DNA of 64,000 nucleotides, from positions 3,833 to 67,832 of the forward strand of contig CALMAI010000004.1 in NCBI GenBank assembly GCA_937858825.1, given 5' to 3'. This DNA comes from an uncultured Candidatus Peregrinibacteria bacterium. Its GTDB lineage: Bacteria; Patescibacteriota; Gracilibacteria; UBA1369. This document shows positions 1 through 20,240 of this stretch, in pieces. Below the pieces are notes generated by a model, which saw only the letters and a program-made list of their open reading frames with translations, was not told the origin of the DNA and did not search any database. Positions within the stretch are counted from its first letter, which is position 1. Every line of letters starts with the position of its first letter. The translations under genes were made by a program, and so were the position numbers.

Positions 1-3000
1 TTTCATGATTTCCAGGTAGTGGTTTGTTGCTTCAGCGAGCGCGCCGAACTGAATGTAGGCGAGTGCGGCGTAGATGTGGTCTTCGGTGGTGAGTTCGTTG
101 TTGGTTGTGAGGTGGTTGAGCTCGGTGAGGCGCGGCGCATCAACTGATGCTAATCCATAAATGGCCTGGAGTTTTCGTGTAAGTGTTTCATCTTTACTTT
201 CAATAATAGCTGTTAATTCTTGTCGGGCGGCCCGGTCATCCCAAAGGGTTTCATCCAGCCCCAGGAGAAGGGAAGTGAGAGCAAGGTCGGAATCGGCATA
301 TGGAACGATTGAGATTCCGCTCGTTGCTGTTTGATATGGTGTATAGTCGAACGCTTCAACCGGTGACTCCTGGTCAAAATACTCCGCGAGTAGTTTTTGA
401 GCGACATAGTCTGCCGCTGCCATGTCGGCACGACGAACGGTGTTGTAAGTAGCACTCATTAAGGTTCCATAGATTGGTCCAACCTCGTTGTTTCCAAAGA
501 TGAGCTCCGTTCGATCTTCGCTTGATCCAGGAATAGTCATTCCTCCTGTGACAGCACCATTCCACATTTTGGTCTCTTTTAAGTGGGTTGAGCTAACGTT
601 TGTTGTGAGAGCGATGGTGTCGGTGTTGTCACCGGCTTTGGCTGTTACTTCAATGCGGTGATCTCCAAGGGTGAGGGTTGGCAAGGTGATATAACTCGGG
701 ACAAAGGCTTTTCCAACGATGGACTCTTCAAAGTTGAGGTTTGGTACTTTGAGGGTGAAGTTTATGTCATTGTCTTCGGTGAGTCCTGTTCCGTATGCGC
801 GAATCGGAATAGATGGGTCGTCGCCTTCCAGATATTCTGGATTGATGACTGGTACAGCAAAGACCGGTTTGGTAACAGGAATTGAGATTGAGGTGTGGCC
901 TGCTTTAATTGTTCCTCCTTTTATGGCTGCGATGCTCGCACGCCATGAGGTGATGTTATCCGGCAGCTCGAAGGTGACTTGAGCGTTTCCGTTCCCATCG
1001 GTTTCTACGACTTCAAAGATAGCTGTATCTTTAAACACGTCGCGGGTTCCACCTTTTTGGTTGTGAACGTAAATTCCGTCTGCAAAGTAGGTGTGATAGC
1101 TCTCTACTTCAAAGTTATAAACTTTTCGTGATTCGTGAATGGTTTCGATGCTGTTAATGACAACTGGTGTTCCGTTTTGGTCAAGGAGGGTGTCTCCCAG
1201 CTTGGCTTTTCCGGCAAGTTGCCATTGTCCATTCAGGAAGATGATGTGCTCTTTTGTTACTCCAAGGTGGTTGTTCATGAGTAGGTATTCGTTGATGTCA
1301 TGTTCGACTGTTTTTACAACTTTTCCGGCCACAAGCCGTCCGTCTCGTGCTTCCGCCCTGGTAAGAATGGCGTCTCCACTCTTAATGTCTTCAATAGATT
1401 TGGTGCTGCCATCGGCCATAAGGATTTGGGTTCCGGCAATGAAACATCCTCCCATTCCGCCGTCAGTTGCGGCGACAGCATTTTCGAGTGATTCATACGA
1501 TTGCCCAAAGTCTGAGAATGAGTTTTCGTAGATTGCATTGAGCGGATCATTAAATCCTTCGGCAAAGAGTGCATAATAGGCTTCGTCGACCAGGTAAATG
1601 TTGGCATAGGCGTTAGCAACGGGCGTTCCGTTGTCGGCAACGTGAACGGTAAGGGTAATGTTTTCTCCCGGTTCGTAGCTTGCCTGGTTTGGCTGAGCGG
1701 TAATGTCGAGTCGGCGGGTTTCGTAGTCGAAGCTGAATCTTCGTGGGTAGGATGCCCGGTATCGGGTTCCATCGTAGCTATAAACCTTTATTGAGGTGTT
1801 TGGGATTCCTTCTTCTTTAAATGTGTAGTCGAAGGTTTGATCTTGAGAAAGGATGTTGGATTCTACTTCACGGTATGCAACTGAGTAGATGAAGGTGTTG
1901 TTTCCGCTCAATTGTTCTCCATTATGATCGACAACCTGGAGTTGAATTTGATCTCCCGGAACAAATTTTTCGTCTTCGTCTCCGCCAACAAGTTGGAGGA
2001 ATCCGTCGTCGTAGCGGTATGATTGTCCAATAAACCCAGTTTCTTTGTAGAAACGATTTTCATCGTCATAAATGGTGTAGATGACACGATAGCTTTTGTC
2101 TTCATCCAGTTCTGGATTGAATTCAATGATCCCCTGGTTGTCTGCTGTTTTACTTTCTTGTGCAACTTCTTCAAAGCGGGTTTCATATTGATACTGGGGT
2201 TGTAATGTTTTTGTGAGAGGATCGTATTTTTGCCCTGTTTCGATACGGTCATTGAAAACCTCTTCAATGAGAATGTTGGCGGTTGCATTTTTTGCTGGTC
2301 CTTGCCATACATCTGCCTGGCCATAAACGTATGGGAGCTCCGCAACTTTGTTCATATCAACTTGTTGAAGTTCCAGGCGAATATTGTCTGCCTTTGTCTC
2401 TATTTCTGACGCGCCAACGCTTGATCGTACTATGTGGATGGATGTTGATCCGGTGATGTCGGCCAACTCTTCTCGCACGGGAGTAATAGTTTGGTATGCA
2501 GTGTAGAAGAGGCTGCAATATATTTCGCCTTCGCATGAGTTGGTGGTGTCGTTATACGTGATGGATGCTTTTCCTTGAATATCGGTTTGGATTTGTTCAT
2601 TTTGGTTTGGATTCACGTAGTTTCTGGTTTGAAGCTCCAGGTTTGGGACTGGCGTTCCTTCAAAGAAGGTTGTTTCAATGTTGATGTTGGTTGAATCGCC
2701 CCGGTAGATTGCTTTTCTTTCCGGAGTTGCCGTAATTTGATATTCCGGTTTTGTGTATGGGGAGACACTAAAGTAGGTTGAGCTTACGGTCTCATTATTT
2801 TGAACCAGTGTGATGTTATATGATTGGGCTGGTAGGCGGTCGATGTTGAAGGATCCGCTGAGTACTTGTCCGTCGTGAATTTCTACATCCTGTTCGTAAT
2901 AGATCTGGTCTGATGTTGCGATTGCATAGTCAAAGAGGAAGTAGTTTGGGGTGACAACAAGTTTTGCAGGACCATTAACTGGTTCGTTTTTTCCCTGGAT

Positions 3001-4614
3001 GAAAGCCCAATAATAGATTGTATCGGTTGGGAGGTAGTTACTACGATCGGTCTGGAAGTAGTCCCACACGGTTTCTTCGTATGAAGACCAGCTACGGAGT
3101 TCATAGAATGTTGTGAATCCATTTGGAGGGGTAACTTTGATTAGATTTTCTCCAGAGGTCTGCTTTTCGTAGTCGTACTGTTCTATTGGTAGTTCATCCA
3201 GTTCCACAAATCCGTTTTGGTCTGTTGATACGGTTGTGTCTGAATTGGAGATTTGAACTGTTGCTCCTGGAATTGGATTTTTGTTTTGGTTGTCGTGGAG
3301 CCAGACAAAGGCTTTCTCTGTGCTAATGTTCAAGAATGCCGCGGTGTTACTTACCTGGATAAGTGATTGCACGACTTCGTCGTTGGATCTTAGTTCTATG
3401 AGGTAGTATCCTTCGGGGAGAACTTCTGGTAGTGCCAGATATTTTGTGTAGTCGGGTCCTTCTAGTGGAAGGTTGTTGAAGCTGAATTTTTCGCTGAGGT
3501 TGTTGGTGTCGATATTTTGTTCGCGATACTGAACCCAGTATGGTTTTCCTGCAAATTTCTGGTTGATAATTTGCTCAAAATTGTCGGCATTTGGAATGGT
3601 ATAAACCGATCCTGATACAACTTGAGACGCTCCTTCTCTGTCATTGAAATTTATTTCCAGAACTGGTTCGCGGGAAGGATCAAATTCGTTAATGTTTTTT
3701 CTAAAGTTGATATTTGTGAGGTAAGCCGTTGATCCACTGGTTTCGAACTGGAATGTGTATGGTTGTCCAAGAGTTTTATCACTTCCTGGGATAGTAAGGT
3801 TTTCGTTGATGGTCACGGTATATACTGTTTCTTTTTTCAACTCTTCGGGCGCGAAAATTCCTGTTTTTCCATCCATACTAAAGGTTCCGTTGATGCTTGG
3901 CTCAATGCTGAAGTTGTTTTGGAACTCTTGGGCGGTGATGCCATAGTTATTGAACTGGATTTCGATGCCGCTATTGGTTGGCACGCCGCTGGTTTGGTTT
4001 CCCGGGATGGTGCTGGTGATGGCAAGTTGGTTGGATACCTGGAATGCCCAGCTGTACTCTTTTTTGTATGGGCTGTCGGTGATGTTTTGGGCTTCGAGGG
4101 TGATGGAGTAAACTTCTCCTTCTTTCAATGTTTCTGTTGGACGGATAATGATTTCGTTGTCAGTGCGCTGTTTTGCTTCGACTGCCACTTCGGGGGTGAT
4201 AATTAGGTTTTGTTCTATTTCCCCGGCATTTATCGATCCTTTACTCTTTAAAAGGAATTCGTTGTCTGCGTCGATGCCGGCCTCACTTTCTGCTAATGCT
4301 GTGAGAGTGTAATAATCTTTGGCTTCGGCGACGTTGACGAACTCTACTGGTAGAACATTTTTTGGTACAAAAATGTTGAATGAAAAGAGGAGAACGAGAA
4401 CAAGGGCAGTTGCCGGTATCAATCCAAATTTAAAGAGTGAGTCAAAGTTGAACCGTTTACGTTTCTCTTTTGTTGAGGGTTCGTTCATGGTTTTGGCTTT
4501 GTCTTGAATCTGGCTTCGAAGCTGATTCTTGAAATCTGGATTTCCTTTTTTCTTCAGCATGGTTGCAAGCTGTTTAAGATCTTTCTCCAAGTTGTTGTTG
4601 TTATTTTTTGGCAT
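1..4614 (-). CDS. Giant membrane-anchored alpha-2-macroglobulin (A2M)-like protein, C-terminus cut by the window edge (>=1538 aa)
   Basis: Absent from the ORF track because there is no stop inside the window. Minus-strand frame read by hand from ATG 4614-4612 (MPKNNNNNLEKDLKQLATMLKKKG...). 4614-3360 and 1680-1 were translated codon by codon with no stop; the interval between them was read through more quickly and no stop was noticed. No track ORF shares this frame. Short N-terminal tail, one TM (FGLIPATALVLVLLFSFNIF), long beta-rich MG/Ig-like region, 'ANIYLVDEAYYALF', the A2M-domain hallmark 'RDVFKDTAIFEVVETDGNGNAQVTFELPDNITSWR', then a helical TED-like region. Confidence 0.85.
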   Translation of the reverse strand, partial: MPKNNNNNLEKDLKQLATMLKKKGNPDFKNQLRSQIQDKAKTMNEPSTKEKRKRFNFDSLFKFGLIPATALVLVLLFSFNIFVPKNVLPVEFVNVAEAKDYYTLTALAESEAGIDADNEFLLKSKGSINAGEIEQNLIITPEVAVEAKQRTDNEIIIRPTETLKEGEVYSITLEAQNITDSPYKKEYSWAFQVSNQLAITSTIPGNQTSGVPTNSGIEIQFNNYGITAQEFQNNFSIEPSINGTFSMDGKTGIFAPEELKKETVYTVTINENLTIPGSDKTLGQPYTFQFETSGSTAYLTNINFRKNINEFDPSREPVLEINFNDREGASQVVSGSVYTIPNADNFEQIINQKFAGKPYWVQYREQNIDTNNLSEKFSFNNLPLEGPDYTKYLALPEVLPEGYYLIELRSNDEVVQSLIQVSNTAAFLNISTEKAFVWLHDNQNKNPIPGATVQISNSDTTVSTDQNGFVELDELPIEQYDYEKQTSGENLIKVTPPNGFTTFYELRSWSSYEETVWDYFQTDRSNYLPTDTIYYWAFIQGKNEPVNGPAKLVVTPNYFLFDYAIATSDQIYYEQDVEIHDGQVLSGSFNIDRLPAQSYNITLVQNNETVSSTYFSVSPYTKPEYQITATPERKAIYRGDSTNINIETTFFEGTPVPNLELQTRNYVNPNQNEQIQTDIQGKASITYNDTTNSCEGEIYCSLFYTAYQTITPVREELADITGSTSIHIVRSSVGASEIETKADNIRLELQQVDMNKVAELPYVYGQADVWQGPAKNATANILIEEVFNDRIETGQKYDPLTKTLQPQYQYETRFEEVAQESKTADNQGIIEFNPELDEDKSYRVIYTIYDDENRFYKETGFIGQSYRYDDGFLQLVGGDEDEKFVPGDQIQLQVVDHNGEQLSGNNTFIYSVAYREVESNILSQDQTFDYTFKEEGIPNTSIKVYSYDGTRYRASYPRRFSFDYETRRLDITAQPNQASYEPGENITLTVHVADNGTPVANAYANIYLVDEAYYALFAEGFNDPLNAIYENSFSDFGQSYESLENAVAATDGGMGGCFIAGTQILMADGSTKSIEDIKSGDAILTRAEARDGRLVAGKVVKTVEHDINEYLLMNNHLGVTKEHIIFLNGQWQLAGKAKLGDTLLDQNGTPVVINSIETIHESRKVYNFEVESYHTYFADGIYVHNQKGGTRDVFKDTAIFEVVETDGNGNAQVTFELPDNITSWRASIAAIKGGTIKAGHTSISIPVTKPVFAVPVINPEYLEGDDPSIPIRAYGTGLTEDNDINFTLKVPNLNFEESIVGKAFVPSYITLPTLTLGDHRIEVTAKAGDNTDTIALTTNVSSTHLKETKMWNGAVTGGMTIPGSSEDRTELIFGNNEVGPIYGTLMSATYNTVRRADMAAADYVAQKLLAEYFDQESPVEAFDYTPYQTATSGISIVPYADSDLALTSLLLGLDETLWDDRAARQELTAIIESKDETLTRKLQAIYGLASVDAPRLTELNHLTTNNELTTEDHIYAALAYIQFGALAEATNHYLEIMK
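1060..1446 (-). other. Hint (intein-like / BIL-type) domain embedded in the A2M-like CDS, 129 aa
   Basis: Hand translation verified codon by codon: CFIAGTQILMADGSTKSIEDIKSGDAILT...LGVTKEHIIF...RKVYNFEVESYHTYFADGIYVHN. Cys1 (block A), T-x-x-H (block B) and terminal His-Asn (block G) are all present. The next residue is Gln (HN|QKGG), not Cys/Ser/Thr. There is no endonuclease insert. Confidence 0.8.
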
Positions 4615-4617
4615 GCT

Positions 4618-5172
4618 TTAGTAGTTACACATTTGTTGGAGTCGCGCCATGGCCCGGTTGAGTTTTACTCCCACGTTTGATGTGGTGATGTTGAGTGTTT
4701 CTGCTATCTCTTTATAGGAGAGGTTTTCGAAATATTTGAGGGTGATGATGTGCTTTTCGTCGTCTTTGAGTTTTTCGAGGGCAAGGTGGAGGGATGAGAG
4801 GCTTTCCGTGAATTCGATCTGTTCTTCGTGTTCTTTCATGGATGTGTCGGCTGCTTCCGCCTTGGTTTCGTTGTTGTGGATTTGCTTGATGGCGGTCTTT
4901 TGTGCCTTCTGATTTGATCGGAAATAGTCGTTCATTTTGTTAATGGCAATGCGGTAGAGCCAGGCGCTGAAAGGTTTTCCGGTATATTCGTAGTCGTCCA
5001 TTTTTTCCAGCGCGGTCATGAAGGTTTCGGATGTGATGTCCTGTGCGTCGTGCTGGTTGTAGACCCGGGAGACAACGTATTTGAAAATTTTTTCAAAGTT
5101 GGCGTCGTAGAGTGCTACAAATGCAGTTTTATCTTGTTGTGCGGCTTCAATGAGCTGTTTTTCGGTGGCCAT
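4618..5172 (-). CDS. ECF-type RNA polymerase sigma-70 factor
   Basis: 184 aa. Region 2 (FEKIFKYVVSRVYNQHDAQDITSETFMTALEKMDDY...FSAWLYRIAINKMNDYFR) and region 4 HTH (LSYKEIAETLNITTSNVGVKLNRAMARL). The stop lies 3 nt upstream of the A2M-like start. Confidence 0.9.
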   Translation of the reverse strand: MATEKQLIEAAQQDKTAFVALYDANFEKIFKYVVSRVYNQHDAQDITSETFMTALEKMDDYEYTGKPFSAWLYRIAINKMNDYFRSNQKAQKTAIKQIHNNETKAEAADTSMKEHEEQIEFTESLSSLHLALEKLKDDEKHIITLKYFENLSYKEIAETLNITTSNVGVKLNRAMARLQQMCNY

Positions 5173-5235
5173 TCCGGGCTGAGGAAAGTAAATTTTACTG
5201 TTGTTTCGGTTGTATAACGATCCTTTAAAACTTTC

Positions 5236-5832
5236 TTACATTTTTTTTAGCATTTCTTCGACCTGGAAGAGTGGAAGGCCGATAACGTTGTGATAGTCAC
5301 CATAAATTGTGTGGATGAATTTACCGGCGTGACCTTCGATAGTTAGAGCTCCCGCAACGTTCAGTACATCGTCCTCTTTAATAATCTGGTCAATTTCCTG
5401 GTTGGAAATGTTCCCAAAGTGCAGTGTGGTAACGGCGTGTTCGCTGAGTTTTTTGATAATTGTACCACGGTCATTGGTCTTGATAACAGCAACACCTGTG
5501 TAAATTTTCATGACATTGTTGCTGTAGGCGGCGATCATTTTTTTTGCCTCAGTCATGGATTTGGGTTTGCCGAATTTTTTACCATTCATGGTTCCGAAAG
5601 TGTCGGCTCCGATAATGATGGAGTCTGGATATTTGTGTGCCACGAATTCGGCCTTTTTGAAGGCTAGGAATTTGGCGAGCGCTGGAGCAGTTTTGCGGGC
5701 GTTCATGTCTTCTTCATATCCACTAGCGTGACATTCGAAATCGATCTCCAGCTCTTTGAGAAGTTTGCGGCGGGCTGGTGATCTGGATGCGAGGATGATT
5801 CTGGCGGGTGGTTTTTTTGGCATTTCTGCCAT
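5236..5832 (-). CDS. maf: Maf-like nucleoside triphosphate pyrophosphatase (septum formation protein Maf)
   Basis: 198 aa. ILASRSPARRKLLKELEIDF, IIGADT and YGDYHNVIGLPL are typical Maf family motifs. Confidence 0.85.
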   Translation of the reverse strand: MAEMPKKPPARIILASRSPARRKLLKELEIDFECHASGYEEDMNARKTAPALAKFLAFKKAEFVAHKYPDSIIIGADTFGTMNGKKFGKPKSMTEAKKMIAAYSNNVMKIYTGVAVIKTNDRGTIIKKLSEHAVTTLHFGNISNQEIDQIIKEDDVLNVAGALTIEGHAGKFIHTIYGDYHNVIGLPLFQVEEMLKKM

Positions 5833-5841
5833 TATACCACC

Positions 5842-6156
5842 TTATTGACGATCTTTTTTCTTTTTGCTCCGAATTTTTATGTATTCGGCGATGGGCTGAT
5901 CGTTCTTTTTGTAGAGGATTTTAAGAATGATCAGAATGCTGGTGGCAGAGGTGTTGAGTGATGCTGATGCAATGAGAGGTATGTCTTGTAAGTGGTATCC
6001 GTAGATTGCCCAGGATAGTGATCCTCCCAAAAAAAGGATAAGCATGGACCATGCGACATCGCGGAGGTGCTGGGTGTGAATGGCCTTGTACACTTCCGGG
6101 ATGAGGTGTGTTCCGGTGAGTAAGACGCCGATATATCCAAAAATAGTGAAATCCAT
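5842..6156 (-). CDS. SemiSWEET / PQ-loop family 3-TM transporter
   Basis: 104 aa with three predicted TM helices. PQ-loop-like 'HLIPEVYKAIHTQHLRDVAW...SWAIYGY' and a basic C-terminal tail. Confidence 0.55.
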   Translation of the reverse strand: MDFTIFGYIGVLLTGTHLIPEVYKAIHTQHLRDVAWSMLILFLGGSLSWAIYGYHLQDIPLIASASLNTSATSILIILKILYKKNDQPIAEYIKIRSKKKKDRQ

Positions 6157-6246
6157 AATAGTTGGTGATTCATATTATTATACCATTTTTTAAGGCGTGA
6201 GTCTATTAAGGGAGTGTGATATAATGGTTCGAGTAATCAAAAAAAT

Positions 6247-7263
6247 ATGAAAAAATATGTTAGTCGGGTTTTGTCTGGATTAGGTGGCGGTGTGCTGCTT
6301 AATTTTTTGTTTGTTTCGCCGGCTCTGGCACATGTGAAGTGGTTTGTGGAAACGGAGGAAATTGTGGCCAAAGAGACCACACATTATGCGCTGACTGATC
6401 CGTTTGTGATGATGTGGATAGCGGTTATTGTTTTAACGGTACTGGTGGCATTTTTGCTGGATATTGTTTTGCCTGAGCCGAAGGCTAAAATTTTTAAAAA
6501 GGCGGAGAAGTGGAAGTCTGTTATTTATAAAATTTTTGCAATAACGATTGGTGTAAACTTCTTGCTGGAAGCGTATCTTGGTGCAGTTTTTGCTCCACCT
6601 TTTAAAGTGGTTTCGACTTTTGAATTTGCACTGGTTGGATTGCAGGTTCTTTTAGGCTTGATGCTTACTTTTGGAGTGAAAGTTCGATGGGCAGCGGCTG
6701 GGATTGTTCTTTTGTATCTTGGATCGATGATGTCTTATGGCGTTATGCCACTTCTGGATGAAGTTTTTATGATTGGAGTGGCGGCGTTTTTGTTTTTGGA
6801 ACATCCAGAGAGTTATACCTGGTCAAAAGAGTACGAGGCTTATGCGATTCCGCTATTGCGTGTTTTTTCCGGTATAGCTTTGATTGTGTTGGCCTTTTCG
6901 GAAAAGTTTTTACACCCGGAATTGGGGCTCAACTTTTTGAACGAGTTTCATTGGAATTTTATGCAGATGTTGGGGATTGCTGATTTTTCGAATTTGATGT
7001 TCGTTTTTTCGGCGGGAGCTATGGAGTTTTTGTTCGGAACGATTTTAATACTTGGATTTATTCCCCGCATTAATATGTTTGCGACAGCTTTCTTTTTCAC
7101 CATTACGTTTATACTTTTGGGGCCGATTGAAGTGATTGGACACATGCCTATTTTTGTTACTGCGTTGGTGATTATTTTGTATGGAGGAGGGGAACGATTG
7201 AATTTTCGGGAATTGATTCCACATAAAAAGCGCAGCAAGGTTGCCGCGCTTTTTGGTAGATAA
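6247..7263 (+). CDS. Polytopic integral membrane protein, function unknown (DoxX-like?)
   Basis: 338 aa. Signal/TM at the N-terminus (LLNFLFVSPALAHVKWF) and roughly 8 hydrophobic helices. No catalytic motif recognised. Confidence 0.7.
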   Translation: MKKYVSRVLSGLGGGVLLNFLFVSPALAHVKWFVETEEIVAKETTHYALTDPFVMMWIAVIVLTVLVAFLLDIVLPEPKAKIFKKAEKWKSVIYKIFAITIGVNFLLEAYLGAVFAPPFKVVSTFEFALVGLQVLLGLMLTFGVKVRWAAAGIVLLYLGSMMSYGVMPLLDEVFMIGVAAFLFLEHPESYTWSKEYEAYAIPLLRVFSGIALIVLAFSEKFLHPELGLNFLNEFHWNFMQMLGIADFSNLMFVFSAGAMEFLFGTILILGFIPRINMFATAFFFTITFILLGPIEVIGHMPIFVTALVIILYGGGERLNFRELIPHKKRSKVAALFGR

Positions 7264-7275
7264 AATCTGTAATTT

Positions 7276-8457
7276 TTAGCTCTTGGTGCTTGGTTTACTT
7301 TGTGCTTTTTGGCGTAACACCATTACAACTACTCCAATAACAAGTAGTGCGACCAGAATTAGCGCCACAATGTTGTGAAGAATCATCGATACAAAGACAA
7401 CAACAGTTGAAACTACTGCGGCAACAATGAATGTCGCGATTCCAATCACGCTTTTGCTCAGGTCTCCAACGAGTGGTACAAAATCAAGAACGGTGCTGAT
7501 TGGTCCAAGGAGCATACCAAGGCTTACCCACATGAGGAAGAATCCAAGGATGCGAAGCCCCCATGTTGATTGGCTGTGTTCTGTGGTCATTTTTGAGAGT
7601 GACTCTTCGTGTGTGCCGCTGAAAATTCGGTAGAGGTTCGTATTTTTTGGGCCAACGAAAGTGCTGAGTTCTGTTCCGGACTGTTGTCCAAAAGCAGTCA
7701 CCTGTTGGTTTGATGGAACAACAGAGTAGCTAATGCGAACATCTCCAACTTCTGGAGTTTCAAGGGTTCCGAATCCTTTAAAAATGTATTTGTTGCTTTC
7801 CAGGGTTGGGGCAATGTCTTCAAAGTTGTCGAAGTACATCATCTCTTCATCGTCGTCCATCATGAGTTCCCCTTCATTAAGAAGGGCTGTTTCTTCTGTT
7901 AATGGTAGTTCCTGAAATGCCGGGAGTTGAGCTTTATCCAGGTTGAGGGTGTAGAGTCCAACTTTGGCTGAAGGAGCTTTAATGGTTTCATCCTGGATCG
8001 CTTTTTGTGGATTTTGGTGGTCGGCTCCAAATTTAAATTTACTGGAATCCGATGGGTTTGAAGTCCAGACTTTTTCGTATGAATAGATGCGATCTTCCAT
8101 ACGTTTTTGATCTGGATTTTGATTGTCGAGGTAGGTGTCATTGTTTTCTACAGATTCGCTTTTTTCATCCCATGCATACATTTCCACGTTGCGGCGGACG
8201 GCAACATAGTCGCCTTCCTGGAGGTAGATGTCTCCAATCATCCCGTCGGTTTCAATGGTTCCGGAAAGAGATACCAGTTTTCCTTCTGCTTCTGGATTTT
8301 GTTCGGTGGCAGAGATTTTTATAGCATCTTTTGCAACTCCAGATAGATCGACACGACCTTCATTCCAATAAAGGACTCCGATCGATACAAAAAAGAGAAT
8401 AAACCCGATAAGAATCCCTTTTAAAGAACCGGTAAGGCGGTTAAGCGAGTTTTGCAT
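7276..8457 (-). CDS. TMEM43/DUF1625-like membrane protein
   Basis: 393 aa. N-terminal TM followed by 'LYWNEGR', a long soluble middle, and a C-terminal cluster of TM helices. This architecture is typical of bacterial TMEM43-family proteins. Confidence 0.5.
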   Translation of the reverse strand: MQNSLNRLTGSLKGILIGFILFFVSIGVLYWNEGRVDLSGVAKDAIKISATEQNPEAEGKLVSLSGTIETDGMIGDIYLQEGDYVAVRRNVEMYAWDEKSESVENNDTYLDNQNPDQKRMEDRIYSYEKVWTSNPSDSSKFKFGADHQNPQKAIQDETIKAPSAKVGLYTLNLDKAQLPAFQELPLTEETALLNEGELMMDDDEEMMYFDNFEDIAPTLESNKYIFKGFGTLETPEVGDVRISYSVVPSNQQVTAFGQQSGTELSTFVGPKNTNLYRIFSGTHEESLSKMTTEHSQSTWGLRILGFFLMWVSLGMLLGPISTVLDFVPLVGDLSKSVIGIATFIVAAVVSTVVVFVSMILHNIVALILVALLVIGVVVMVLRQKAQSKPSTKS

Positions 8458-8558
8458 GACAGGTTTTAAAAAATATTTATGGGGTGATTGTAGAATAGAT
8501 CTTGACTTTTGTGAAGTAGAGGAGCAAAGTCGCGATTAGTACTTGTTATTTTTTTCCT

Positions 8559-8849
8559 ATGGAAAAGCGACTATTTGTTGGAGGCATTTCATGGAGCACC
8601 ACAGAGGATCAGCTCCGCGACATGTTTGCACAAGCGGGAAACGTTGTTTCTTGCAAAATTATTGTGGACAAATTTTCTGGCCGCAGTAAGGGGTTTGGTT
8701 TCGTTGAATTCGAAACCGAAGAAGAAGCCGCAAAGGCTATTGAGATGTTCCATGAAAAGGAAGATCCAAATGGTCGAAAGATCATCGTGAACGAGGCACG
8801 CCCAATGGAACCTCGGGATAATGAAGGTGGAGGAGGCGGAAGCTTCTAA
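8559..8849 (+). CDS. RRM-type RNA-binding protein with Gly-rich tail
   Basis: 96 aa. RNP-2 'LFVGGISW', RNP-1 'KGFGFVEF', and C-terminal GGGGGSF. Confidence 0.9.
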   Translation: MEKRLFVGGISWSTTEDQLRDMFAQAGNVVSCKIIVDKFSGRSKGFGFVEFETEEEAAKAIEMFHEKEDPNGRKIIVNEARPMEPRDNEGGGGGSF

Positions 8850-8869
8850 GTTATAACTTTCAAGGAGAA

Positions 8870-8897
8870 GAGCGGGCTGTGTGTCCGCTCTTTTTTT
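8870..8897 (+). terminator. Rho-independent terminator after the RRM gene
   Basis: Stem GAGCGG (8870-8875) / CCGCTC (8885-8890) followed by TTTTTTT. Confidence 0.7.
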
Positions 8898-8907
8898 GTG
8901 GCAGATT

Positions 8908-10149
8908 TTAGGCGCGGGTGATGTCTCGGTGATGGAAAAGATTAACGGTCCAATCTATCGCAATTTTGATTTTTTTGGATGAAGAGATGAATTTAAAAAG
9001 GTAGACGGTGCGCCAGAGCCACCATGCGATTGGGCCGGACCAGTTGACGCCAAGTGTGTGTCCCAGTGCGCCCCATTGACCTATTGAAACGAGTTCGCCT
9101 TTGGAATGATATTTGAAAGATTTGAGCGGTTTTTGCTGGATGCTGGCGGCAATGTTGTCGGCTACTGTTTTGGCTTGCTGTACCGCAACTTGTGCGAGCA
9201 TAGGAAGTGGTTTGCCGGATTGATGTTCGTAAGATGCCACATCTCCGAGTGCGAAAATGTGAGGATGATCTTTGATTTGAAGATGTTGATTCACTTTAAG
9301 CCGTCTGGATGAATCGGTAGCGATTTCTTGATTGATTTTTGGTGGATTGGCTTTAACTCCAGCGGTCCAGATGACATTGTTTACCGGCAGTGTTTCTCCG
9401 CTTGAGAGTCGAATGTGATCTTTTTCTATGGAAGTGACGCCGCTGTTGAGTTTGATTTGTACTTTCTTTTTGGTGAGCGCTTGGAGTGCTTTTTTGCGAA
9501 GATATGGATTGAACTGTGGTAAAAGTTCCGGGCCGCGGTTGATGATGTAGAGGTTTACATCTCCGGCTTCGATATCCTGACAGTAATATTTACAGAAGGT
9601 TTTGTAGAAGAAATCTGAAGCTTCGCCGGCGACCTCCACGCCAGTGGCTCCTCCACCCACGATGGCAAAACTGAGAAGCTTTTTACGCTCTTTGGCATCC
9701 TTTACTTTTGATGCTTTTTCGAAATTATCGATGAAATAGTTCCGGAGTTTTATGGCTTCGCCAAGGCTTTTTATTGTGAATGCGTTTTCTTTGGCACCTG
9801 GTATGTCGTAGAAATTGGTGGTCGCGCCGGTGGCAATAACAAGGTAATCAAAATTGATATCTCCAACATTGGTATGAACTTTTTTTGCATCAAAATCGAC
9901 CGATTTAATATTGGCAACGTAGAGATTGGTATCGGAATCGTAAATGATTTCTCTTAATGATTCGACGATTTGGTGATGTCCAAGTCCACCAGTCGCGACT
10001 TCGTGGAGCATTGGAGTAAAAAGGAAGTGGTTCGTTTTGTTGACGAGGATGATGTCGGCTTCTGAGGGCTTGAGTTTTTTGCGAAGGTGGAGATAGGTAT
10101 AAATTCCACCAAAGCCAGCCCCGAGGATGACAATTTTGGGTTTGTTCAT
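8908..10149 (-). CDS. ndh: Type II NADH dehydrogenase (NDH-2), FAD-dependent pyridine nucleotide-disulfide oxidoreductase
   Basis: Start moved to MNKPKIVILGAGFGGIY (ATG 10149) because the track start overlaps the upstream gene. Two Rossmann GxGxxG motifs (GAGFGG, GGGATG) and 'FALGDVA'. Confidence 0.85.
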   Translation of the reverse strand: MNKPKIVILGAGFGGIYTYLHLRKKLKPSEADIILVNKTNHFLFTPMLHEVATGGLGHHQIVESLREIIYDSDTNLYVANIKSVDFDAKKVHTNVGDINFDYLVIATGATTNFYDIPGAKENAFTIKSLGEAIKLRNYFIDNFEKASKVKDAKERKKLLSFAIVGGGATGVEVAGEASDFFYKTFCKYYCQDIEAGDVNLYIINRGPELLPQFNPYLRKKALQALTKKKVQIKLNSGVTSIEKDHIRLSSGETLPVNNVIWTAGVKANPPKINQEIATDSSRRLKVNQHLQIKDHPHIFALGDVASYEHQSGKPLPMLAQVAVQQAKTVADNIAASIQQKPLKSFKYHSKGELVSIGQWGALGHTLGVNWSGPIAWWLWRTVYLFKFISSSKKIKIAIDWTVNLFHHRDITRA

Positions 10150-10159
10150 GTTGGGTTGC

Positions 10160-10627
10160 CTAATTGAGAATGAGGACGCTGTAGGTGAGGTAACTGGCAA
10201 AGGTTACCCAGCAGAGATAAGGGATGAGAAGGATTGCGGCAATTCTGTGAATTGGCCATGCCAATATGATGAGTGCAATAATGCTGATTTTTAGGAACAT
10301 AGCCTCAAACAGGGCTAATCCAATATTGTGCATGCCAAAAAATATGTATGACCAAAGAAGGTTGAGAGCAGCGTTGGCGATGAATGTGTAGGTGAGAAGT
10401 TTTCTTCTTTTTTTTAAATTTCCACGAAGTTTGAGTGTCCAAATAAGGATCGCGGAGATGGCGGTGAGAATGTAGATAATGGTCCAGGCTATGCTGTAGG
10501 TATTGCCGTTTGGAATGCTGGCTGGGAGGTTGAGATTGCTATACCAGCCAAGACCAGCTTCTGTAATGAATCCGCCGCCAATGGCGACAAGGAATGTGAC
10601 AGCGACAATAACAAGATACTTATGCAT
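10160..10627 (-). CDS. tspO: TspO/MBR family tryptophan-rich sensory protein
   Basis: 155 aa, 5 TM. 'GWYSNLNLPASIPNGNTYSIAWTIIYIL' and 'NLLWSYIFFG' match TspO motifs. Confidence 0.75.
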   Translation of the reverse strand: MHKYLVIVAVTFLVAIGGGFITEAGLGWYSNLNLPASIPNGNTYSIAWTIIYILTAISAILIWTLKLRGNLKKRRKLLTYTFIANAALNLLWSYIFFGMHNIGLALFEAMFLKISIIALIILAWPIHRIAAILLIPYLCWVTFASYLTYSVLILN

Positions 10628-10638
10628 AGTGGTGGATT

Positions 10639-11088
10639 TTATTGTTGTTCGCTGAAGCGAACTGGCATTTCGAAGAATTCTGGTTCCGGACCGTCTTCAC
10701 CTGCCGGGGATGATTGTATGAATATTAGTTTTCCTTCGGTTGCTTCCGGTGGATCAAATGTGATGGTTGATTCAAATGGAACAAAGTCGGTGGTCATCCA
10801 GTTGTCGGTGGCATAGGCCGGAGCTTTTGCAATTTCCTGTCCGTCGGCTGTTTGGAGTTCAATATCAAAAACGGCTTCAAACATCCAATTCCCACGGACC
10901 TCTCCTTTAATATCCAGAGGACTGGACACTACCTGATGTGGCGTCACGTTATCGATTTTTATGGATGCCACTTTTTGCGTGTTTTCATTTTCCGGTTTTG
11001 TTTGAACTTGGTTGGAGGTGGATTCGGGTGTGGTCTGACATCCGGCAAGTGTTGCTACAAGGATGAGTCCAATAATGGCTTTTTTCAT
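10639..11088 (-). CDS. Lipoprotein with Gmad2-type immunoglobulin-like domain
   Basis: Lipobox LVATLAGC. 'SSPLDIKGEVRGNWMFEAVFDIELQTADGQEI...TDFVPFESTITF' resembles the Gmad2 (GerMN-associated) Ig-like domain. Confidence 0.6.
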   Translation of the reverse strand: MKKAIIGLILVATLAGCQTTPESTSNQVQTKPENENTQKVASIKIDNVTPHQVVSSPLDIKGEVRGNWMFEAVFDIELQTADGQEIAKAPAYATDNWMTTDFVPFESTITFDPPEATEGKLIFIQSSPAGEDGPEPEFFEMPVRFSEQQ

Positions 11089-11098
11089 AGTATGAAAG

Positions 11099-11662
11099 TT
11101 AAGTGGTTTGTTCTAAGTTTTGTCTGCCCCATTTGAGGGTTGTGGCCATCCAGATCAGCTCTTTATAGGTTCTTTCGATGCGGGAGATGTAGGCTTCATC
11201 AAGGAGTTTTCCTTCTTCATCAAAGAGTTTGCTGACAAATGGGAAATTGACATCGGTGAAGGTGACAGCGAGACCCATTTCACGTGCTGATGGGACGAAG
11301 GCTTCGATTGCGCGGACGCCGCCCCATGGTCCGTTGGAGACTCCGGCGAAGGCAACAGGTTTGTGGACATAGTTCTTCAGTTCGCTGTCCATGAATCTTT
11401 TAAGGGTTCCCGGATAGCCGTGATTGTATTCTGGAATGACCAGAAAAAATGCGTCGGCTTTCGCAGAAATTTCTGAATATTTGGGATCTTTATTTTCTTC
11501 ATCGTTGCCGTCGAAGGGCATGTTGAAATCGTTTGGATCTAATAATTGGCTTTCGACCTCGGGGAGTTTGCCGGCGACTTCATGAATAAGTTTTGCTACG
11601 TTAAAAGATCGTCTTTTTGGGCGGGTGGTTCCAGCTATAACAGGAATAAACAGTTTTTCCAT
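11099..11662 (-). CDS. NAD(P)H-dependent FMN reductase family oxidoreductase
   Basis: 187 aa. 'IAGTTRPKRRS', 'FFLVIPEYNHGYPGTLK' and 'GVSNGPWGG' are typical of the FMN_red family. Confidence 0.8.
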   Translation of the reverse strand: MEKLFIPVIAGTTRPKRRSFNVAKLIHEVAGKLPEVESQLLDPNDFNMPFDGNDEENKDPKYSEISAKADAFFLVIPEYNHGYPGTLKRFMDSELKNYVHKPVAFAGVSNGPWGGVRAIEAFVPSAREMGLAVTFTDVNFPFVSKLFDEEGKLLDEAYISRIERTYKELIWMATTLKWGRQNLEQTT

Positions 11663-11781
11663 ATAGACTTTTATTTTTTATAGTATGCCATTAAAGGTTC
11701 TTTTTTGTAAGTGGAACTCGCTTGTGTTTTTTTTGTGAGTTTTGCTATTGTTCGCTTGGTTATTTTTTTACTTTTTACTTT

Positions 11782-12321
11782 ATGGATTTTTCAAGTCATA
11801 CAATAGGTGGAGTTGGTCTTGAGCAGTATGCAAAGCTTTGCGCGCTTATGGCGAACACACAACCGGAAGAAACCGACAAGCATGCGGAAATTGCAGCTGC
11901 AAATGGTGTTTCCAAGGAAAATTGGGAGGAAGCGAAGAAAGGATGGACTGAAATGATGATGGATCCTCAGCACGCAATGGCGATCCAACAGATTTTTATG
12001 CCAACATATCAGAAGGCTCTTGAAGAGGCTTCTGGTGGCGAAGAGCCATGTTCTTTGGATAATTATGCTCGTATTAAAGCAGCAATGATCTATGAAAAAG
12101 ATCCAAACAATCCGGAAGAAAAGATTCCATATGAACAGGTGCTTGAACGAGAAGGATTTACTCCTACCAAGTGGGCAACAGTTGAGAGTTACTGGACACC
12201 GCGAATAAGCAAGGATGAACATGGCCGGTTGCAGGAAGGGAAGTTTGATGAAGCTGCTGCTGCAAAGTTTGGTGAACTGATGCAGAAGTACGCGGATGAA
12301 ATTATGGGAATCGAGCGATAG
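11782..12321 (+). CDS. Hypothetical soluble protein
   Basis: Start moved to ATG 11782 (MDFSSHTIGG...) because the upstream part of the track ORF is Cys/Phe-rich junk. No motif recognised. Confidence 0.6.
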   Translation: MDFSSHTIGGVGLEQYAKLCALMANTQPEETDKHAEIAAANGVSKENWEEAKKGWTEMMMDPQHAMAIQQIFMPTYQKALEEASGGEEPCSLDNYARIKAAMIYEKDPNNPEEKIPYEQVLEREGFTPTKWATVESYWTPRISKDEHGRLQEGKFDEAAAAKFGELMQKYADEIMGIER

Positions 12322-12342
12322 TTATTCAACGCCCTAGAAAAC

Positions 12343-13038
12343 TCAGGAAGAGGTCGCCAAGGAGGCGACCTCTTTTTTTGTGAGGTGGCGCCATTTACCG
12401 CGGGCAAGTCCTTCCAGAGTTATGGTTCCAACACGCACACGTTTGAGAATTTTTATTTCGTAGCCAAGTTTTTCGCACATGCGGCGGATTTGTCGGTTCA
12501 TGCCCTGAATGAGGATCATGCGGATTTGCCGGTTGTTGATTTTACTGACTTTGGCTGGGAGGGTTGTCTGACCATCCAGGTCGATTCCATCACACATTTT
12601 TTGGACGTGCTCATCGGTGATGGATTTGTTGAGAGTGACCAGATACTCCTTTTCCAGTTTATGTTTGGATTTGAGAATACGATTCACGATGTCTCCATCG
12701 TTGGTGAGGAGAATGAGTCCAGAAGAGTGGACGTCGAGGCGGCCGATTGGGTAGACGCGTGTTTTGAGGTCGATGTAGTCCATGACAGTGTTTTCGCTGT
12801 TTTTGTCGGTTGTGGTTATAACGCCGAACGGTTTATGGAACGCGATGTAAATCTTTTGATTTTGAATTTTGACCGGTTTTCCGTTCACGGTGATGGTGTC
12901 TTCTTCGGAAACGGTTGCTCCGAGTTCTGCTTTTTTACCGTTGATGTTTACTTTTCCTGCCTGAATAAGCTTGTCAGCTTCGCGTCTGGAGCAGATGCCG
13001 GTTTCGGCAATAAACTTGTTGATTCGTATTTTTTCCAT
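12343..13038 (-). CDS. Pseudouridine synthase, RsuA/RluB family (S4 domain + catalytic domain)
   Basis: 231 aa. S4 domain 'RINKFIAETGICSRREADKLIQAGKVNING' and catalytic 'GRLDVHSSGLILLTNDG'. Confidence 0.9.
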   Translation of the reverse strand: MEKIRINKFIAETGICSRREADKLIQAGKVNINGKKAELGATVSEEDTITVNGKPVKIQNQKIYIAFHKPFGVITTTDKNSENTVMDYIDLKTRVYPIGRLDVHSSGLILLTNDGDIVNRILKSKHKLEKEYLVTLNKSITDEHVQKMCDGIDLDGQTTLPAKVSKINNRQIRMILIQGMNRQIRRMCEKLGYEIKILKRVRVGTITLEGLARGKWRHLTKKEVASLATSS

Positions 13039-13052
13039 GGTGAGAATGTTCT

Positions 13053-14972
13053 TTAAAAATTTTTAACCCGATGTTTTGCGCGAACCTCTTTCATAATGTT
13101 TTTGAGCCGTGTGGCAAGTTCTTTAAATTCGCCGTTGGAGTTTGTGTCGAGGCCTTTTTTCTGTGCTTTTTCAATGTAAAGGGCGCTGTTAATGAGTCCA
13201 ATGTGGCTGTATGCCTGAGGATAGTTTCCCAGAGCAATGTTGTCTTTTGGATCGAACTCTTCTGCTAAAAGTCCTGTAGGGCTGGTGCATTCGAGTATTT
13301 TAAAGAAGAGGCTTTTGGCTTCCTGGATCCGGCCTGAGTAGGCGAGTACATCTATGAGCCAGAAAGAGCAAAGGAGGAATGCTCCTTCTTCGCCTTTCAG
13401 TCCGTCGTCGGTGCGGTGTTCGTAGCGGTAGACGAGTCCTTCTTTGGTGGTGATTCTTTTGAGGACGGCGTTGAGTGTTCCCTGAATGCGTGGGTCGTCG
13501 AAGGGGAGAAATTTGTAGATTGGTATGAGGAGGCAGGTGGCATCGATAATGTCTGATCCATAGGCCTGAACGAAGCTGTTAATTTTGGAATTGAATCCTT
13601 TTTCCAGGATGTCTTCGTGAATTTGTTGGCGTACGGCAGTCCATTTTTCTCGTGGACAATCTTTTTCATGCTTGTCTGCCATTTTGATCGCACGGTCCAA
13701 GGCAACCCAGCACATGAGTTTTGAGTGAACGAAATGTTGGTATCCGCCACGAACTTCCCAGATTCCTGCGTCTTTGGTATTCCATACGTCGCAGACGTAA
13801 TCGACAATTTTGCTTAAAAATTTCCATTCGCGATCAGAGATGTCGATGCCGAAGCGGCTGGTTTCATAGAAGGCGTTGACGAGTTCGCCATAGATGTCGA
13901 GTTGTTTTTGTTTGGCGGCTCCGTTTCCAATACGAACCGGTTTTGAATCCATGTAGCCGGAAAGATGGTCGAGGGTTTGTTCTTCCAAATCTTTTTCTCC
14001 ATGAAGTCCGTACATAATCTGGATCTCTTCCGGGGCGGTGTTTTCGGTACAGATTTTCATGAACCATTCCAGATTTTTGCGAGCCTCTTTTACGTAGCCG
14101 AGCTTGTAGAGGGCGCGCACGGTGAAGGCGGCATCGCGGATCCAGTTGAAGCGGTAGTCCCAGTTGCGCTCACCCCCAATGTGTTCGGGGAGGGATGTGG
14201 TGGCTGCCGCGCAGATGGCGCCGGTCATATCCTGGATGAGCAGTTTCAGAACGAGTCCTGAACGAATAATCACGTCTTTCCACGGCCCGGTAAAAAGTCC
14301 ACTTTCGGGTTGGCAGACATCGCAGTCATTAATCCAGCTTCGCCAGAATGCAATTGTTGTTTCCAGTGCTTTTTGGCATTGTTCCTCCATGAGACGGCGA
14401 TCGTCATTGTATTGAAGAGCAACCCAAGCGCTTTCACCTTGCTTTAGATTTATGCTCCCTGTGGCTCCTTTGGAGTTAACTTCAAGAGGGATAGAGGTGT
14501 CGATGTAGAGTGACTCTTTGTGATTATTGGCGACTGCCCCGCGATCTGTTTTTTCGAAAGACATGCTTGAGCGCGCGTAGTCAAAGTGGGGTTGGAATTC
14601 CAGATTTATTTCTCCTTTTCCTTTTACGCAGGTGATTTTTCGAATGAGTGTTGGGAAGGTATTTTCATACGGTTTTTCGACATGCTTTACTGGCATGAAA
14701 TCGGTCAAAACAAATGACCCGGTTTGTGTTTTGAAATGAGTTTCCAGAACATTGGTGTTCTTGATGTACTTTTGTCTGGATTTGAACTTTTTTGAAGGTT
14801 GGATAGTGCAATGACCTCCTTTGTCTTTGTCCAACATGACAGCAAAAACGCTCGGGGAGTTGATGTGAGGGATGCAGTACCAGTCGATTGATCCATTTTT
14901 GCCGATGAGGGCAACTGTTAAGAGATCTCCAATAATGCTGTAGTCGTTGATGTGGAGTTCTTTACTTTTCAT
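13053..14972 (-). CDS. Glycoside hydrolase family 15 (glucoamylase / trehalase-like)
   Basis: Start moved to [17 protein letters not shown] (ATG 14972). '[26 protein letters not shown]', '[16 protein letters not shown]', 'IWEVRGG' and 'LLAEEFDP' are GH15 hallmarks. Confidence 0.85.
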
Positions 14973-15396
14973 TGGTGTCCTCTTTCTTTTTAAAGTCGAG
15001 AGCCGCGGAGTTAATGCAGTACCGTTTTCCTGAATCTGTTGGGCCGTCGTCGAAAACATGGCCTAAATGTGCGTCGCATTTTTTGCAACGGACTTCGGTG
15101 CGAATCATCCCATGACTGGTGTCTTCCAGCAACTTAATATGTTCCAGATTTTTAGGATCGGAAAAGCTTGGCCATCCGGATCCGGAATCGAATTTGGTGT
15201 CAGATGAGAAGAGTTCGGCTCCGCAGCAGACACACATATATGTTCCAGACTCTTTGTTTTTGTAGTATTTGCCGGTAAAGGGAGCTTCTGTCCCGCCTTT
15301 GCGGGTGATGTTGTACTGTTCGTCGGTCAGTTTTTCTTTCCAGTCGTTATCGGTCATTTCATTCATATCTTTTTTAGAGTTTTGATCGTCAGTCAT
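14962..15396 (-). CDS. msrB: Peptide-methionine (R)-S-oxide reductase MsrB
   Basis: SelR domain: '[26 protein letters not shown]' and '[21 protein letters not shown]'. Confidence 0.92.
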
Positions 15397-15423
15397 GTGA
15401 AAGGGTTAAGGAGTTGTGTGTTA

Positions 15424-16392
15424 TTAGTCGGCGTATTGAATGAGAGAATCTTTTATAAGAAGATAGTCTGCTTTGTGGCGGTCGTAAGCTTCCTGATTTT
15501 TGTATTGAATTGACCAGGTGTAGCGGGTTTGTGATCCGTCTGGTCCGGTAAAGAGATTGTCTTCGATAGATCTTGTATAGAGGCCGTCTTTGGCTTCGAA
15601 GGTTTTCCAGGTGGTGGTTCGGGTTGTTCCTGTTCCCAGGCTTGAGTTGGAGTCGGTTGAGGTTGTGGTTTTTGTGGCTACTTCGTCTTCGTTACTTCTT
15701 TGGAAAAGGTTTGTTGGCTCTCCGCTCCAGAGTGGTGAATACAGTTCGATTATTACTGTGTCATCGGTGGAAATGAGTTTTCCATAGTCTGTATCGGCGG
15801 CTTGAACCATGAATGTTGATGGATAGGTCAGGCTAAAATAGTCTTTAGCATAGCTTTGGAGGTTGTCGGGTTCATTTTCTTCGTTTGGGAATGGTGGTTC
15901 GTAGAAGATGTAGAGTAGTTCGTGAGCTTCGAGCAGGAGATCGTCACCAGTTTTACTTTCGGCATCTTCGGGAAAATGCAAAGTTTGACTTTCTACTGTT
16001 GTCTTGGATTCGTCAAATTCTGGATCAATGATGTGTGCGTTGTATGTGTGGAGTGTTGTTATGGCTGCGAATGGTTCGTCGCTGTCTTCGTAGAAAAATT
16101 CGTTTACTCGTTTTCCTGTTTCTCCAAAATGTGTGACCTTAATTTTTCGAATTTGATTATCGATTTCATAAAAGGTGGCAATGGATCCTTCGGTTGAAAA
16201 TCCTTCCAGTTCTTTGGTTGTTATGGTGGCGTTTGCTACTTCGGCATTGATCTTACTGAAAATGTCTTCCTGGATTTCCTGCTCTGGAATTTCTGTTTCA
16301 GTTTGAGTATTTGGTTCCGGAGATTGAGGCGCTTGCAGCAGGTTACATCCTGCAAGAGCTAAAGTGGTGATAAGAAGAAGAGTTTTTTTCAT
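15424..16392 (-). CDS. Hypothetical lipoprotein
   Basis: Lipobox LALAGC followed by an acidic linker. No catalytic motif recognised. Confidence 0.65.
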   Translation of the reverse strand: MKKTLLLITTLALAGCNLLQAPQSPEPNTQTETEIPEQEIQEDIFSKINAEVANATITTKELEGFSTEGSIATFYEIDNQIRKIKVTHFGETGKRVNEFFYEDSDEPFAAITTLHTYNAHIIDPEFDESKTTVESQTLHFPEDAESKTGDDLLLEAHELLYIFYEPPFPNEENEPDNLQSYAKDYFSLTYPSTFMVQAADTDYGKLISTDDTVIIELYSPLWSGEPTNLFQRSNEDEVATKTTTSTDSNSSLGTGTTRTTTWKTFEAKDGLYTRSIEDNLFTGPDGSQTRYTWSIQYKNQEAYDRHKADYLLIKDSLIQYAD

Positions 16393-16455
16393 GGTGATGT
16401 TTATGTCTTGGAGTAACTATATCATGGCTTCAGGATTTCATGTTAGGATTGCTGT

Positions 16456-17174: not shown

Positions 17175-17186
17175 GGTGGATGAAGG

Positions 17187-17513: not shown

Positions 17514-17540
17514 GTGTTTATGGATATGGGGATGAAATTA

Positions 17541-17630
17541 TGGCGGAGAGAGGGGGATTCGAACCCCCGAGACCCTTGCGAGTCTACCCGCTTTCCAAGC
17601 GAGCGCACTAGGCCACTATGCGACCTCTCC
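17541..17630 (-). tRNA. tRNA-Ser (anticodon GGA), CCA encoded
   Basis: Reverse complement GGAGAGG...CTCGC-TTGGAAA-GCGGG...long variable arm...GGGGGTTCGAATCCCCC-TCTCTCC-G-CCA. 90 nt, cloverleaf checked by hand. Confidence 0.9.
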
Positions 17631-17689
17631 ATATTTGGGTAGCAAAAAAGGGTGTCGTTATTGTAACACCCTTTTTGAAGTTGAAAACA

Positions 17690-20236: not shown

Positions 20237-20240
20237 GCCT

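Follow-up and report, generated by a model that had tools for sequence, protein, structure and literature searches.

Why should the gene for a giant alpha-2-macroglobulin (A2M)-like membrane protein lie directly behind that of a sigma factor of the extracytoplasmic function (ECF) kind, in the position normally taken by an anti-sigma factor? The question arises from a 64,000-nucleotide stretch of DNA (here, the window) from an uncultured “Candidatus Peregrinibacteria” bacterium (GenBank assembly GCA_937858825.1, contig CALMAI010000004.1, positions 3,833 to 67,832), in which both genes are encoded on the minus strand within the first 5,172 positions. A first-pass annotation of the window, made from the sequence alone, had proposed that the A2M-like protein is itself the anti-sigma factor and that its extracytoplasmic part serves as the sensor. 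Our analysis indicates that the sigma factor and the giant, thioester-less A2M-like protein probably constitute an autoregulated operon of an ECF sigma factor and its membrane anti-sigma factor, an interpretation to which comparisons across genomes lend good support.

The upstream gene of the pair (positions 4618..5172, minus strand) encodes an ECF (group IV) sigma factor of 184 amino acids, recognized by both Pfam (Sigma70_r2 at residues 21-89, 54.8 bits; Sigma70_r4_2 at residues 127-178, 55.7 bits) and the generic ECF model of NCBIfam, TIGR02937 (118 bits against a cutoff of 42.9). Its closest solved structure is that of Bacillus subtilis SigW (PDB accession number 5wuq; E = 2.6e-16), and the protein is of standard length and lacks the features of partner-dependent ECF sigma factors. 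The TAA stop codon of its open reading frame (ORF), at 4618-4620, is followed by three nucleotides (AGC) and then by the ATG of the A2M-like gene at 4612-4614, which confirms the earlier description of a sigma gene ending 3 nt before the start of an A2M-like gene of at least 1,538 codons. There are no terminator-like sites on the minus strand between the two genes, which form a single, tightly coupled operon with a 3-nt gap. No other anti-sigma candidate adjoins the sigma gene. The same gene order, Maf-sigma-A2M-like, recurs in the genome of “Candidatus Peregrinibacteria bacterium HKST-UBA20” (L019), where the A2M-like gene is followed by genes for a class II tRNA synthetase (Asp/Asn type) and SmpB.

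The candidate anti-sigma gene occupies positions 1..4614 (minus strand), with its first 1,538 codons in the window and its frame open to the window's edge; full-length homologues have 1,824 amino acids and are 94% identical over 100% of the query (P0001) and 99% identical (L019). An alternative genetic code, considered on account of a close homologue labeled “Gracilibacteria,” was ruled out: the 1,538-codon frame is free of stops under table 11, and the genome with the 99% identical homologue is from Peregrinibacteria. Hydrophobicity and an AlphaFold2 (AF2) model place a single transmembrane helix at residues ~60 to 82 (positions 4369..4437, minus strand), and the 94% identical, full-length homologue has only one hydrophobic segment, at residues ~57 to 90. 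The 59 residues that precede the helix are basic (14 Lys or Arg against 7 Asp or Glu), which implies an orientation with the N terminus inside the cell and leaves an ectodomain of ~1,740 amino acids. With the 3-nt gap and a single helix oriented N-in, the protein thus sits where a single-pass anti-sigma factor would be encoded and shares its topology, just as first proposed.

The ectodomain begins with a Big_5 Ig-like domain (residues 195-292, positions 3739..4032, minus strand; 54.3 bits against a Pfam cutoff of 23.6) and continues, past weaker matches to bMG3 and MG2, to an A2M bait-region domain (A2M_BRD; residues 881-1016, positions 1567..1974, minus strand; 39.9 against 22.7) and a Pfam “A2M” macroglobulin domain (residues 1197-1254, positions 853..1026, minus strand; 26.1 against 21), which directly follows the bait region and its inserted HINT domain and contains the family signature LPDNITSWR. 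A single-sequence search of the PDB with the large protein reached only its HINT part, and A2M structures required a family profile. The profile, built from 20 family members, matches YfhM/ECAM of Escherichia coli (1.7e-17), the Salmonella A2M (4e-14) and human A2M (8e-8), as well as CD109, TEP1 and complement C5. An AF2 model of residues 860-1300 (mean predicted local distance difference test [pLDDT] score of 76) retrieved complement C4/C3/C5, CD109, A2M, A2ML1 and ECAM at a probability of 1.00 in a fold search. Because profile matches and fold search agree, the protein's membership in the A2M superfamily holds at the levels of both sequence and fold. Alignment with the CxEQ-bearing homologues P0025, P0029 and P0031 locates a degenerate thioester site at positions 421..435 (minus strand), which reads RRADM in place of the GCxEQ of thioester-bearing A2Ms; the corresponding position in 11 aligned family members is R-x-D-(Q/D/A/I/M). 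Since CxEQ is absent from the entire sequence of all 22 members searched, the family is, to judge from these alignments, thioester-less, consistent with the type II bacterial A2Ms; in type I members, it is this motif, in the TED domain, that defines the type.

The evidence that ties this protein to the sigma factor comes from its relatives, for which we took one genome per GTDB species (more than 550 relatives), fetched the best 80 of them, and could score 64, assigning each locus by the length of the N-terminal tail (at least 30 residues or shorter) and by the presence of an adjacent ECF sigma ORF. Tails of at least 30 residues occur in 24 homologues, of which 20 have an adjacent sigma ORF and 4 do not, whereas none of the 40 homologues with shorter tails has one (Fisher's exact test, p = 5e-13). 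The arrangement is not rare, with a sigma-linked share of ~30% (20/64) among the species representatives examined. The distance from the end of the sigma ORF to the start of the A2M-like gene at the linked loci ranges from -16 to +164 nt and is mostly between about -11 and +13 nt. Gene neighborhoods of 11 homologues give the same picture: an ECF sigma gene lies directly upstream, on the same strand, in 8 of 8 tail-bearing ones (P0004, P0007, P0008, P0009, P0010, P0013, P0014 and P0016), the remaining neighbors varying by locus, and in 0 of 3 homologues (P0017, P0018 and P0019) that have no tail and start with the transmembrane helix; these have a Memo-family gene downstream instead. Conservation of the gene pair in relatives, on which the first-pass annotation had made its idea depend, is therefore observed both in these neighborhoods and among the species representatives. 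The Memo-family (PF01875) gene lies directly downstream in the three sigma-less homologues with examined neighborhoods (L014, L015 and L016 among the species representatives) and also in the sigma-linked L011, which makes it a recurrent gene pair.

Sigma-linked members span Peregrinibacteria/Peribacteria, Uhrbacteria, Doudnabacteria and other Patescibacteria, as well as Clostridia/Peptococcaceae, and on a rough neighbor-joining tree of the ectodomains they interleave with unlinked members at at least 8 places. It follows from this interleaving that the association is not the legacy of one clade, and we reject a single-clade artifact as its source; across Patescibacteria and Bacillota, tail and sigma gene co-occur through repeated gain or loss. 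The four tail-bearing homologues that lack a linked sigma gene (L029, L034, L048 and L064) have tails of 34 to 65 residues that are low in complexity and without the “P..F+..L+” helix; two of them, L029 and L034, have the sigma-linked L040 as their sister and may have lost the sigma gene recently.

The neighboring sigma factors are themselves related: those beside A2M-like genes in the same clade are 45 to 54% identical to the window's sigma factor, and those beside A2M-like genes with non-zinc tails in Clostridia and other Patescibacteria score ~90 to 112 bits against it, as compared with 53 bits for the window's second ECF sigma factor. Moreover, in two Bacillota homologues, the tail is replaced by a zf-HC2 anti-sigma domain, detected in L052 (Acetivibrio sp.) at 33.3 bits against a Pfam cutoff of 22.2 and in P0014 as a precomputed PF13490 match; both loci show a 4-nt overlap between sigma gene and A2M-like gene.

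The tail of the window protein has a structure of its own. AF2, run with eight homologues, predicts helices at residues 6-23 and 28-44 (pLDDT of 72 to 78), a disordered linker, and the transmembrane helix at 60-82, and we take the two-helix part (residues 6-44, LEKDLKQLATMLKKK / PDFKNQLRSQIQDKAKT; positions 4483..4599, minus strand), delimited by this model and by conservation, as the candidate sigma-binding segment. Its helices are 47% identical to those of homologues that are 36 to 38% identical overall, which corresponds to the 79th percentile of 36-residue windows, and they contain the invariant residues E10, L16, M19, F28, L32, R33 and A40; identity in the linker that follows is only 14%. 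The tail contains no Cys and no His, and a Pfam scan of eight other tails returned no anti-sigma match except zf-HC2 in L052.

Upstream of the sigma gene there is a candidate ECF-type promoter, TGTAAGAAAGTTTTAAAGGATCGTTATA (TGTAAG-N15-CGTTATA; positions 5213..5240, minus strand), found by motif match 67 nt upstream of the sigma ATG, with a -35 element that overlaps the stop codon of Maf, the gene lying upstream. It is the sole match on either strand of the window, where 0.04 would be expected by chance, and a search of the window for further copies, as a route to members of the regulon, found none. Related sigma genes are preceded by TGTAAT-N14/15-(T/G)C(G/A)TTATA in Patescibacteria and by CGTAAC-N16-CGTTAA in Clostridia, and of 18 related sigma genes from these two groups, 11 have the pattern GTAA-N16/17-C[GA]TT[AT] in the 150 nt upstream, against a background of 0.008 per 150 nt. 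Given its resemblance to ECF promoters in general (an AAC-like -35 and a CGT-like -10 element), the motif suggests positive autoregulation of the putative operon. Public reads that carry the window's sequence come only from DNA metagenomes (wastewater and activated sludge), with none from RNA runs.

How the pair might work can be pictured from better-known systems. The general hallmarks of a membrane anti-sigma factor (a gene directly downstream of the sigma gene, a single transmembrane helix oriented N-in, and conserved pairing) are all present, and the likeness to SigW/RsiW of B. subtilis, which combines a class I anti-sigma domain (ASD) with regulated intramembrane proteolysis (RIP), extends to the tight two-gene operon, the candidate ECF-type promoter upstream of the sigma gene, the closest solved sigma structure, the class I zf-HC2 domains of the relatives L052 and P0014, and the presence of an M50 peptidase gene in the window. 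The window protein differs from RsiW in its tail, which consists of two helices in ~44 residues with no zinc motif and no Pfam ASD match, and in its ectodomain, which is A2M-like and ~1,740 residues long; RIP is here only inferred. A class I domain (zf-HC2, PF13490) has four helices in ~80 to 100 residues and often an HxxxCxxC motif, whereas only two helices are predicted ahead of the membrane in the window protein; as an hhalign comparison found nothing between the tail and the zf-HC2 group, there are no grounds for deriving the tail from a class I ASD. A closer formal parallel is the class II factor CnrY, whose two helices bind sigma-4 and sigma-2, the first covering sigma-4 and the second sigma-2 (PMC7406223). 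The window tail shares with CnrY-type proteins the short two-helix cytoplasmic domain, in form only and as predicted by AF2, but no sequence similarity to them was detected; the likeness to class II anti-sigma factors is one of functional analogy, not of family membership. CnrY-type proteins, for their part, are small and are not known to carry a large sensor domain themselves.

By this analogy, the two tail helices would hold the sigma factor at the membrane, and we think it quite probable that they sequester it in a class II-like manner. What would free it is a more tentative matter. A change in the ectodomain could lead to site-1 cleavage, which would be followed by intramembrane proteolysis by a site-2 (M50) protease and by release of the sigma factor, and the most plausible trigger would be an extracellular protease that cleaves or engages the exposed bait loop; this sequence of events is pure inference on our part, possible but somewhat doubtful. 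Once freed, the sigma factor would transcribe its own operon and thereby place more A2M-like protein on the cell surface. In RsiV, which recognizes lysozyme, and in RsgI, with its carbohydrate-binding modules, the ectodomain of an anti-sigma factor likewise directly recognizes an enzyme or polymer from outside and thereby initiates the release of the sigma factor; the concept of an ectodomain as receptor is the same in the pathway proposed here, but the sensor fold is different.

Several observations weigh against an anti-sigma function. Residues 1-100 of the window protein have no Pfam match at E values up to 10, and hhalign finds no similarity between the window tail and the zf-HC2 tails (E = 0.13), so the comparison of the N-terminal 60 residues with anti-sigma profiles that the first-pass annotation had recommended turned up no relative. 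The non-zinc tails of Patescibacteria and Clostridia have in common only a short “P..dF+..L+..L” helix (hhalign E = 0.004 to 0.009, probability below 10%), and the helical part of the window tail, at 44 residues, is shorter than a class I anti-sigma domain. In 4 of the 24 homologues with a tail, no sigma gene lies within 8 kb. The promoter pattern was counted on the very loci that had supplied it, and its enrichment is indicative only. As regards the proposed trigger, we know of no protease-trapping activity in this A2M-like family, and its “bait” is a Gly-rich linker.

Some of these points lend weight to a rival account, in which the A2M-like gene is a cotranscribed target or effector of a sigma factor that is controlled in another way (at transcription or by an unlinked factor), and the tail serves only for topology or anchoring. 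ECF regulons commonly include genes downstream of the sigma gene, the window tail has no recognizable anti-sigma domain, and four of the tail-bearing homologues lack an adjacent sigma gene. A mere target, however, needs no tail, yet tail and sigma gene go together in 20 of 24 cases, as opposed to 0 of 40, across interleaved clades; in addition, the tail helices are conserved above the average of the protein while the linker is not, true zf-HC2 anti-sigma domains stand at the same place in relatives, and an alternative anti-sigma gene adjoins in none of the loci examined, most of which have gaps of -16 to +13 nt. We therefore consider this account unlikely. Genomic evidence of this kind reveals the coupling of tail and sigma factor, not its sign, and the tail might act positively, as a pro-sigma or tethering element that the sigma factor needs for activity, in the manner of FecR-type N-terminal fragments; there is an anti-sigma group in which N-terminal residues are essential for ECF activity (PMC7406223). 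The zf-HC2 domains of the relatives are typically inhibitory, though, and the ordinary length of the sigma factor and its want of partner-dependent features also speak against it, which makes a positive role of the tail very improbable.

A separate question is posed by the domain inserted in the bait loop. Residues Cys1057 to His1184-Asn1185 (positions 1060..1446, minus strand) form a HINT domain of the type A bacterial intein-like (BIL) kind, matched by Pfam PT-HINT at residues 1066-1185 (54.7 bits against a cutoff of 27.7). In the PDB, its sequence matches BIL domain 2lwy best (E = 2e-10 for the single-sequence search and 7e-19 for the family profile), and its model matches the fold of the gp41-1 intein (TM-score of 0.84; root mean square deviation of 2.4 Å). 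The domain is cleanly inserted into the Gly-rich loop that connects A2M_BRD with the macroglobulin domain after it, where HINT-less homologues read only GGxGG(G)D-x-x-R; the insertion falls at the bait loop, as the stretch of the family profile immediately behind HINT corresponds to residues 721-803 of human A2M, and the segments flanking HINT in the AF2 model have pLDDT scores below 50 on both sides. The window domain has C1057, VTKEH at 1119-1123 (block B) and H1184-N1185, followed by Q1186 at the +1 position, and in all 12 HINT-bearing homologues compared, Cys1, VTxEH (the TxxH of block B) and the terminal His-Asn do not vary, and position +1 (Q/D/E/N/A) never holds a nucleophile. Cys1, TxxH, the C-terminal His-Asn, the lack of a +1 nucleophile and the match to 2lwy are all shared with type A BIL/PT-HINT domains, from which the window domain differs in its location, in an A2M-like bait loop and not upstream of a toxin domain. 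With 57% identity, the domain is more strongly conserved than any other part of the A2M-like protein.

Could cleavage by this domain be what releases the sigma factor? The first-pass annotation had named HINT-mediated cleavage as one of two triggers of regulated proteolysis, and the idea draws support from the invariant catalytic residues and from the strong conservation of the domain. In RsgI-type anti-sigma factors, autoproteolysis is needed for signaling. HINT is, however, present in 11 of 44 unlinked homologues and in just 9 of 20 sigma-linked ones, missing from the other 11 linked members (all Bacillota ones included), and it lies ~975 residues from the membrane. It is thus not tied to the sigma coupling: HINT is a trait of a Patescibacteria lineage of the A2M family and belongs to the biology of the ectodomain. 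That self-cleavage of the ectodomain by HINT triggers the release of sigma is accordingly disfavored, and we regard it as rather improbable even though type A BIL domains mostly cleave, and sometimes splice (PMC4031507). Most likely, to go by its catalytic residues, the domain would process the bait loop during maturation, by cleavage or by splicing. Insertion at this linker recalls complement C3 and C4, which undergo proteolytic maturation at the equivalent place.

A bolder idea, and a long shot, is that HINT constitutes a “self-cleaving bait,” in which a Gly-Cys thioester intermediate would take the place of the lost CxEQ thioester, so that the ectodomain could fire, or covalently capture a nucleophile-bearing target, without a protease cut, with the sigma-linked members reporting the event through their tails. 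If true, such a signaling A2M would unite the chemistry of inteins with a trap of the complement kind and with ECF control of transcription. A literature search combining “bacterial intein-like” with “macroglobulin” found no paper, and a bait loop that has a HINT domain set exactly in it is a combination not reported before.

As an A2M, the window protein most resembles MagD of Pseudomonas aeruginosa and ECAM/YfhM of E. coli, with which it shares the A2M domain set and fold, a cytoplasmic-membrane anchor and an outward-facing orientation, and with MagD, in addition, the absence of CxEQ. MagD, a type II A2M without a thioester, still traps protease after bait cleavage (PMC5764988). The differences lie in the anchor, which in the window protein is an N-terminal transmembrane helix with a cytoplasmic tail, whereas YfhM is a lipoprotein and MagD has a signal peptide; in the HINT domain of the bait loop and the N-terminal Big_5; in the genomic setting, with an ECF sigma gene as partner in place of pbpC or the six-gene mag operon of known bacterial A2Ms; and in distribution, as the window family occurs in Patescibacteria and Bacillota and the MagD/ECAM types in Gram-negative bacteria. 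The source databases name the homologous proteins only “HINT domain-containing,” “Ig-like domain-containing” or “alpha-2-macroglobulin family,” and our searches for literature that links anti-sigma or ECF factors with macroglobulin, or that presents an A2M-type protease trap as a sensor, returned nothing relevant, although the pair may be listed in a large table. These results suggest that the ECF sigma factor and the A2M-like protein represent an undescribed sensor/anti-sigma pair.

ECF sigma/anti-sigma pairs are a major mechanism of bacterial signaling, and only a minority of them have a known signal; A2M-type molecules, in turn, have one known job, the detection and trapping of proteases by a bait loop. 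If the proposed anti-sigma function is true, the pairing of the two would offer a testable route from protease attack at the surface to transcription in the ultra-small Patescibacteria and in Clostridia, give bacterial A2M-like proteins a signaling role beyond passive protection, and add a minimal two-helix module to the known anti-sigma domains.

The window contains a second ECF module, consisting of a sigma gene (positions 27982..28584, plus strand) and an ORF for a membrane protein of 250 amino acids (28577..29329, plus strand) that overlaps it by 8 nt. The first-pass annotation had described this module as laid out in the same way, which holds for the overlap of the sigma gene by a membrane-protein gene and fails for the protein itself, in which only ~20 to 25 residues precede the first hydrophobic stretch and which looks multipass. 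It has no Pfam or NCBIfam match and is a candidate for another, as yet unclassified type of anti-sigma factor. A gene of the site-2 protease family (Peptidase_M50, 216 amino acids; positions 18011..18661, plus strand) lies 13 kb from the A2M-like operon. Its HEFSH and LDG motifs are intact, and it might serve both ECF modules of the window as intramembrane protease, though nothing ties it to them.

Among the remaining genes, two tandem ORFs of ~708 amino acids each (positions 20744..25010, minus strand) have no Pfam match and adjoin an M23 peptidase gene (19166..20377) and a gene for an SLH-domain protein (25077..26477), with which they may form a cell envelope cluster. GC skew is positive in every 2-kb bin of positions 1..64000 (+0.06 to +0.38) and AT skew is negative throughout, with genes on both strands; the window in its entirety appears to lie on a single replichore whose strand bias is unusually strong.

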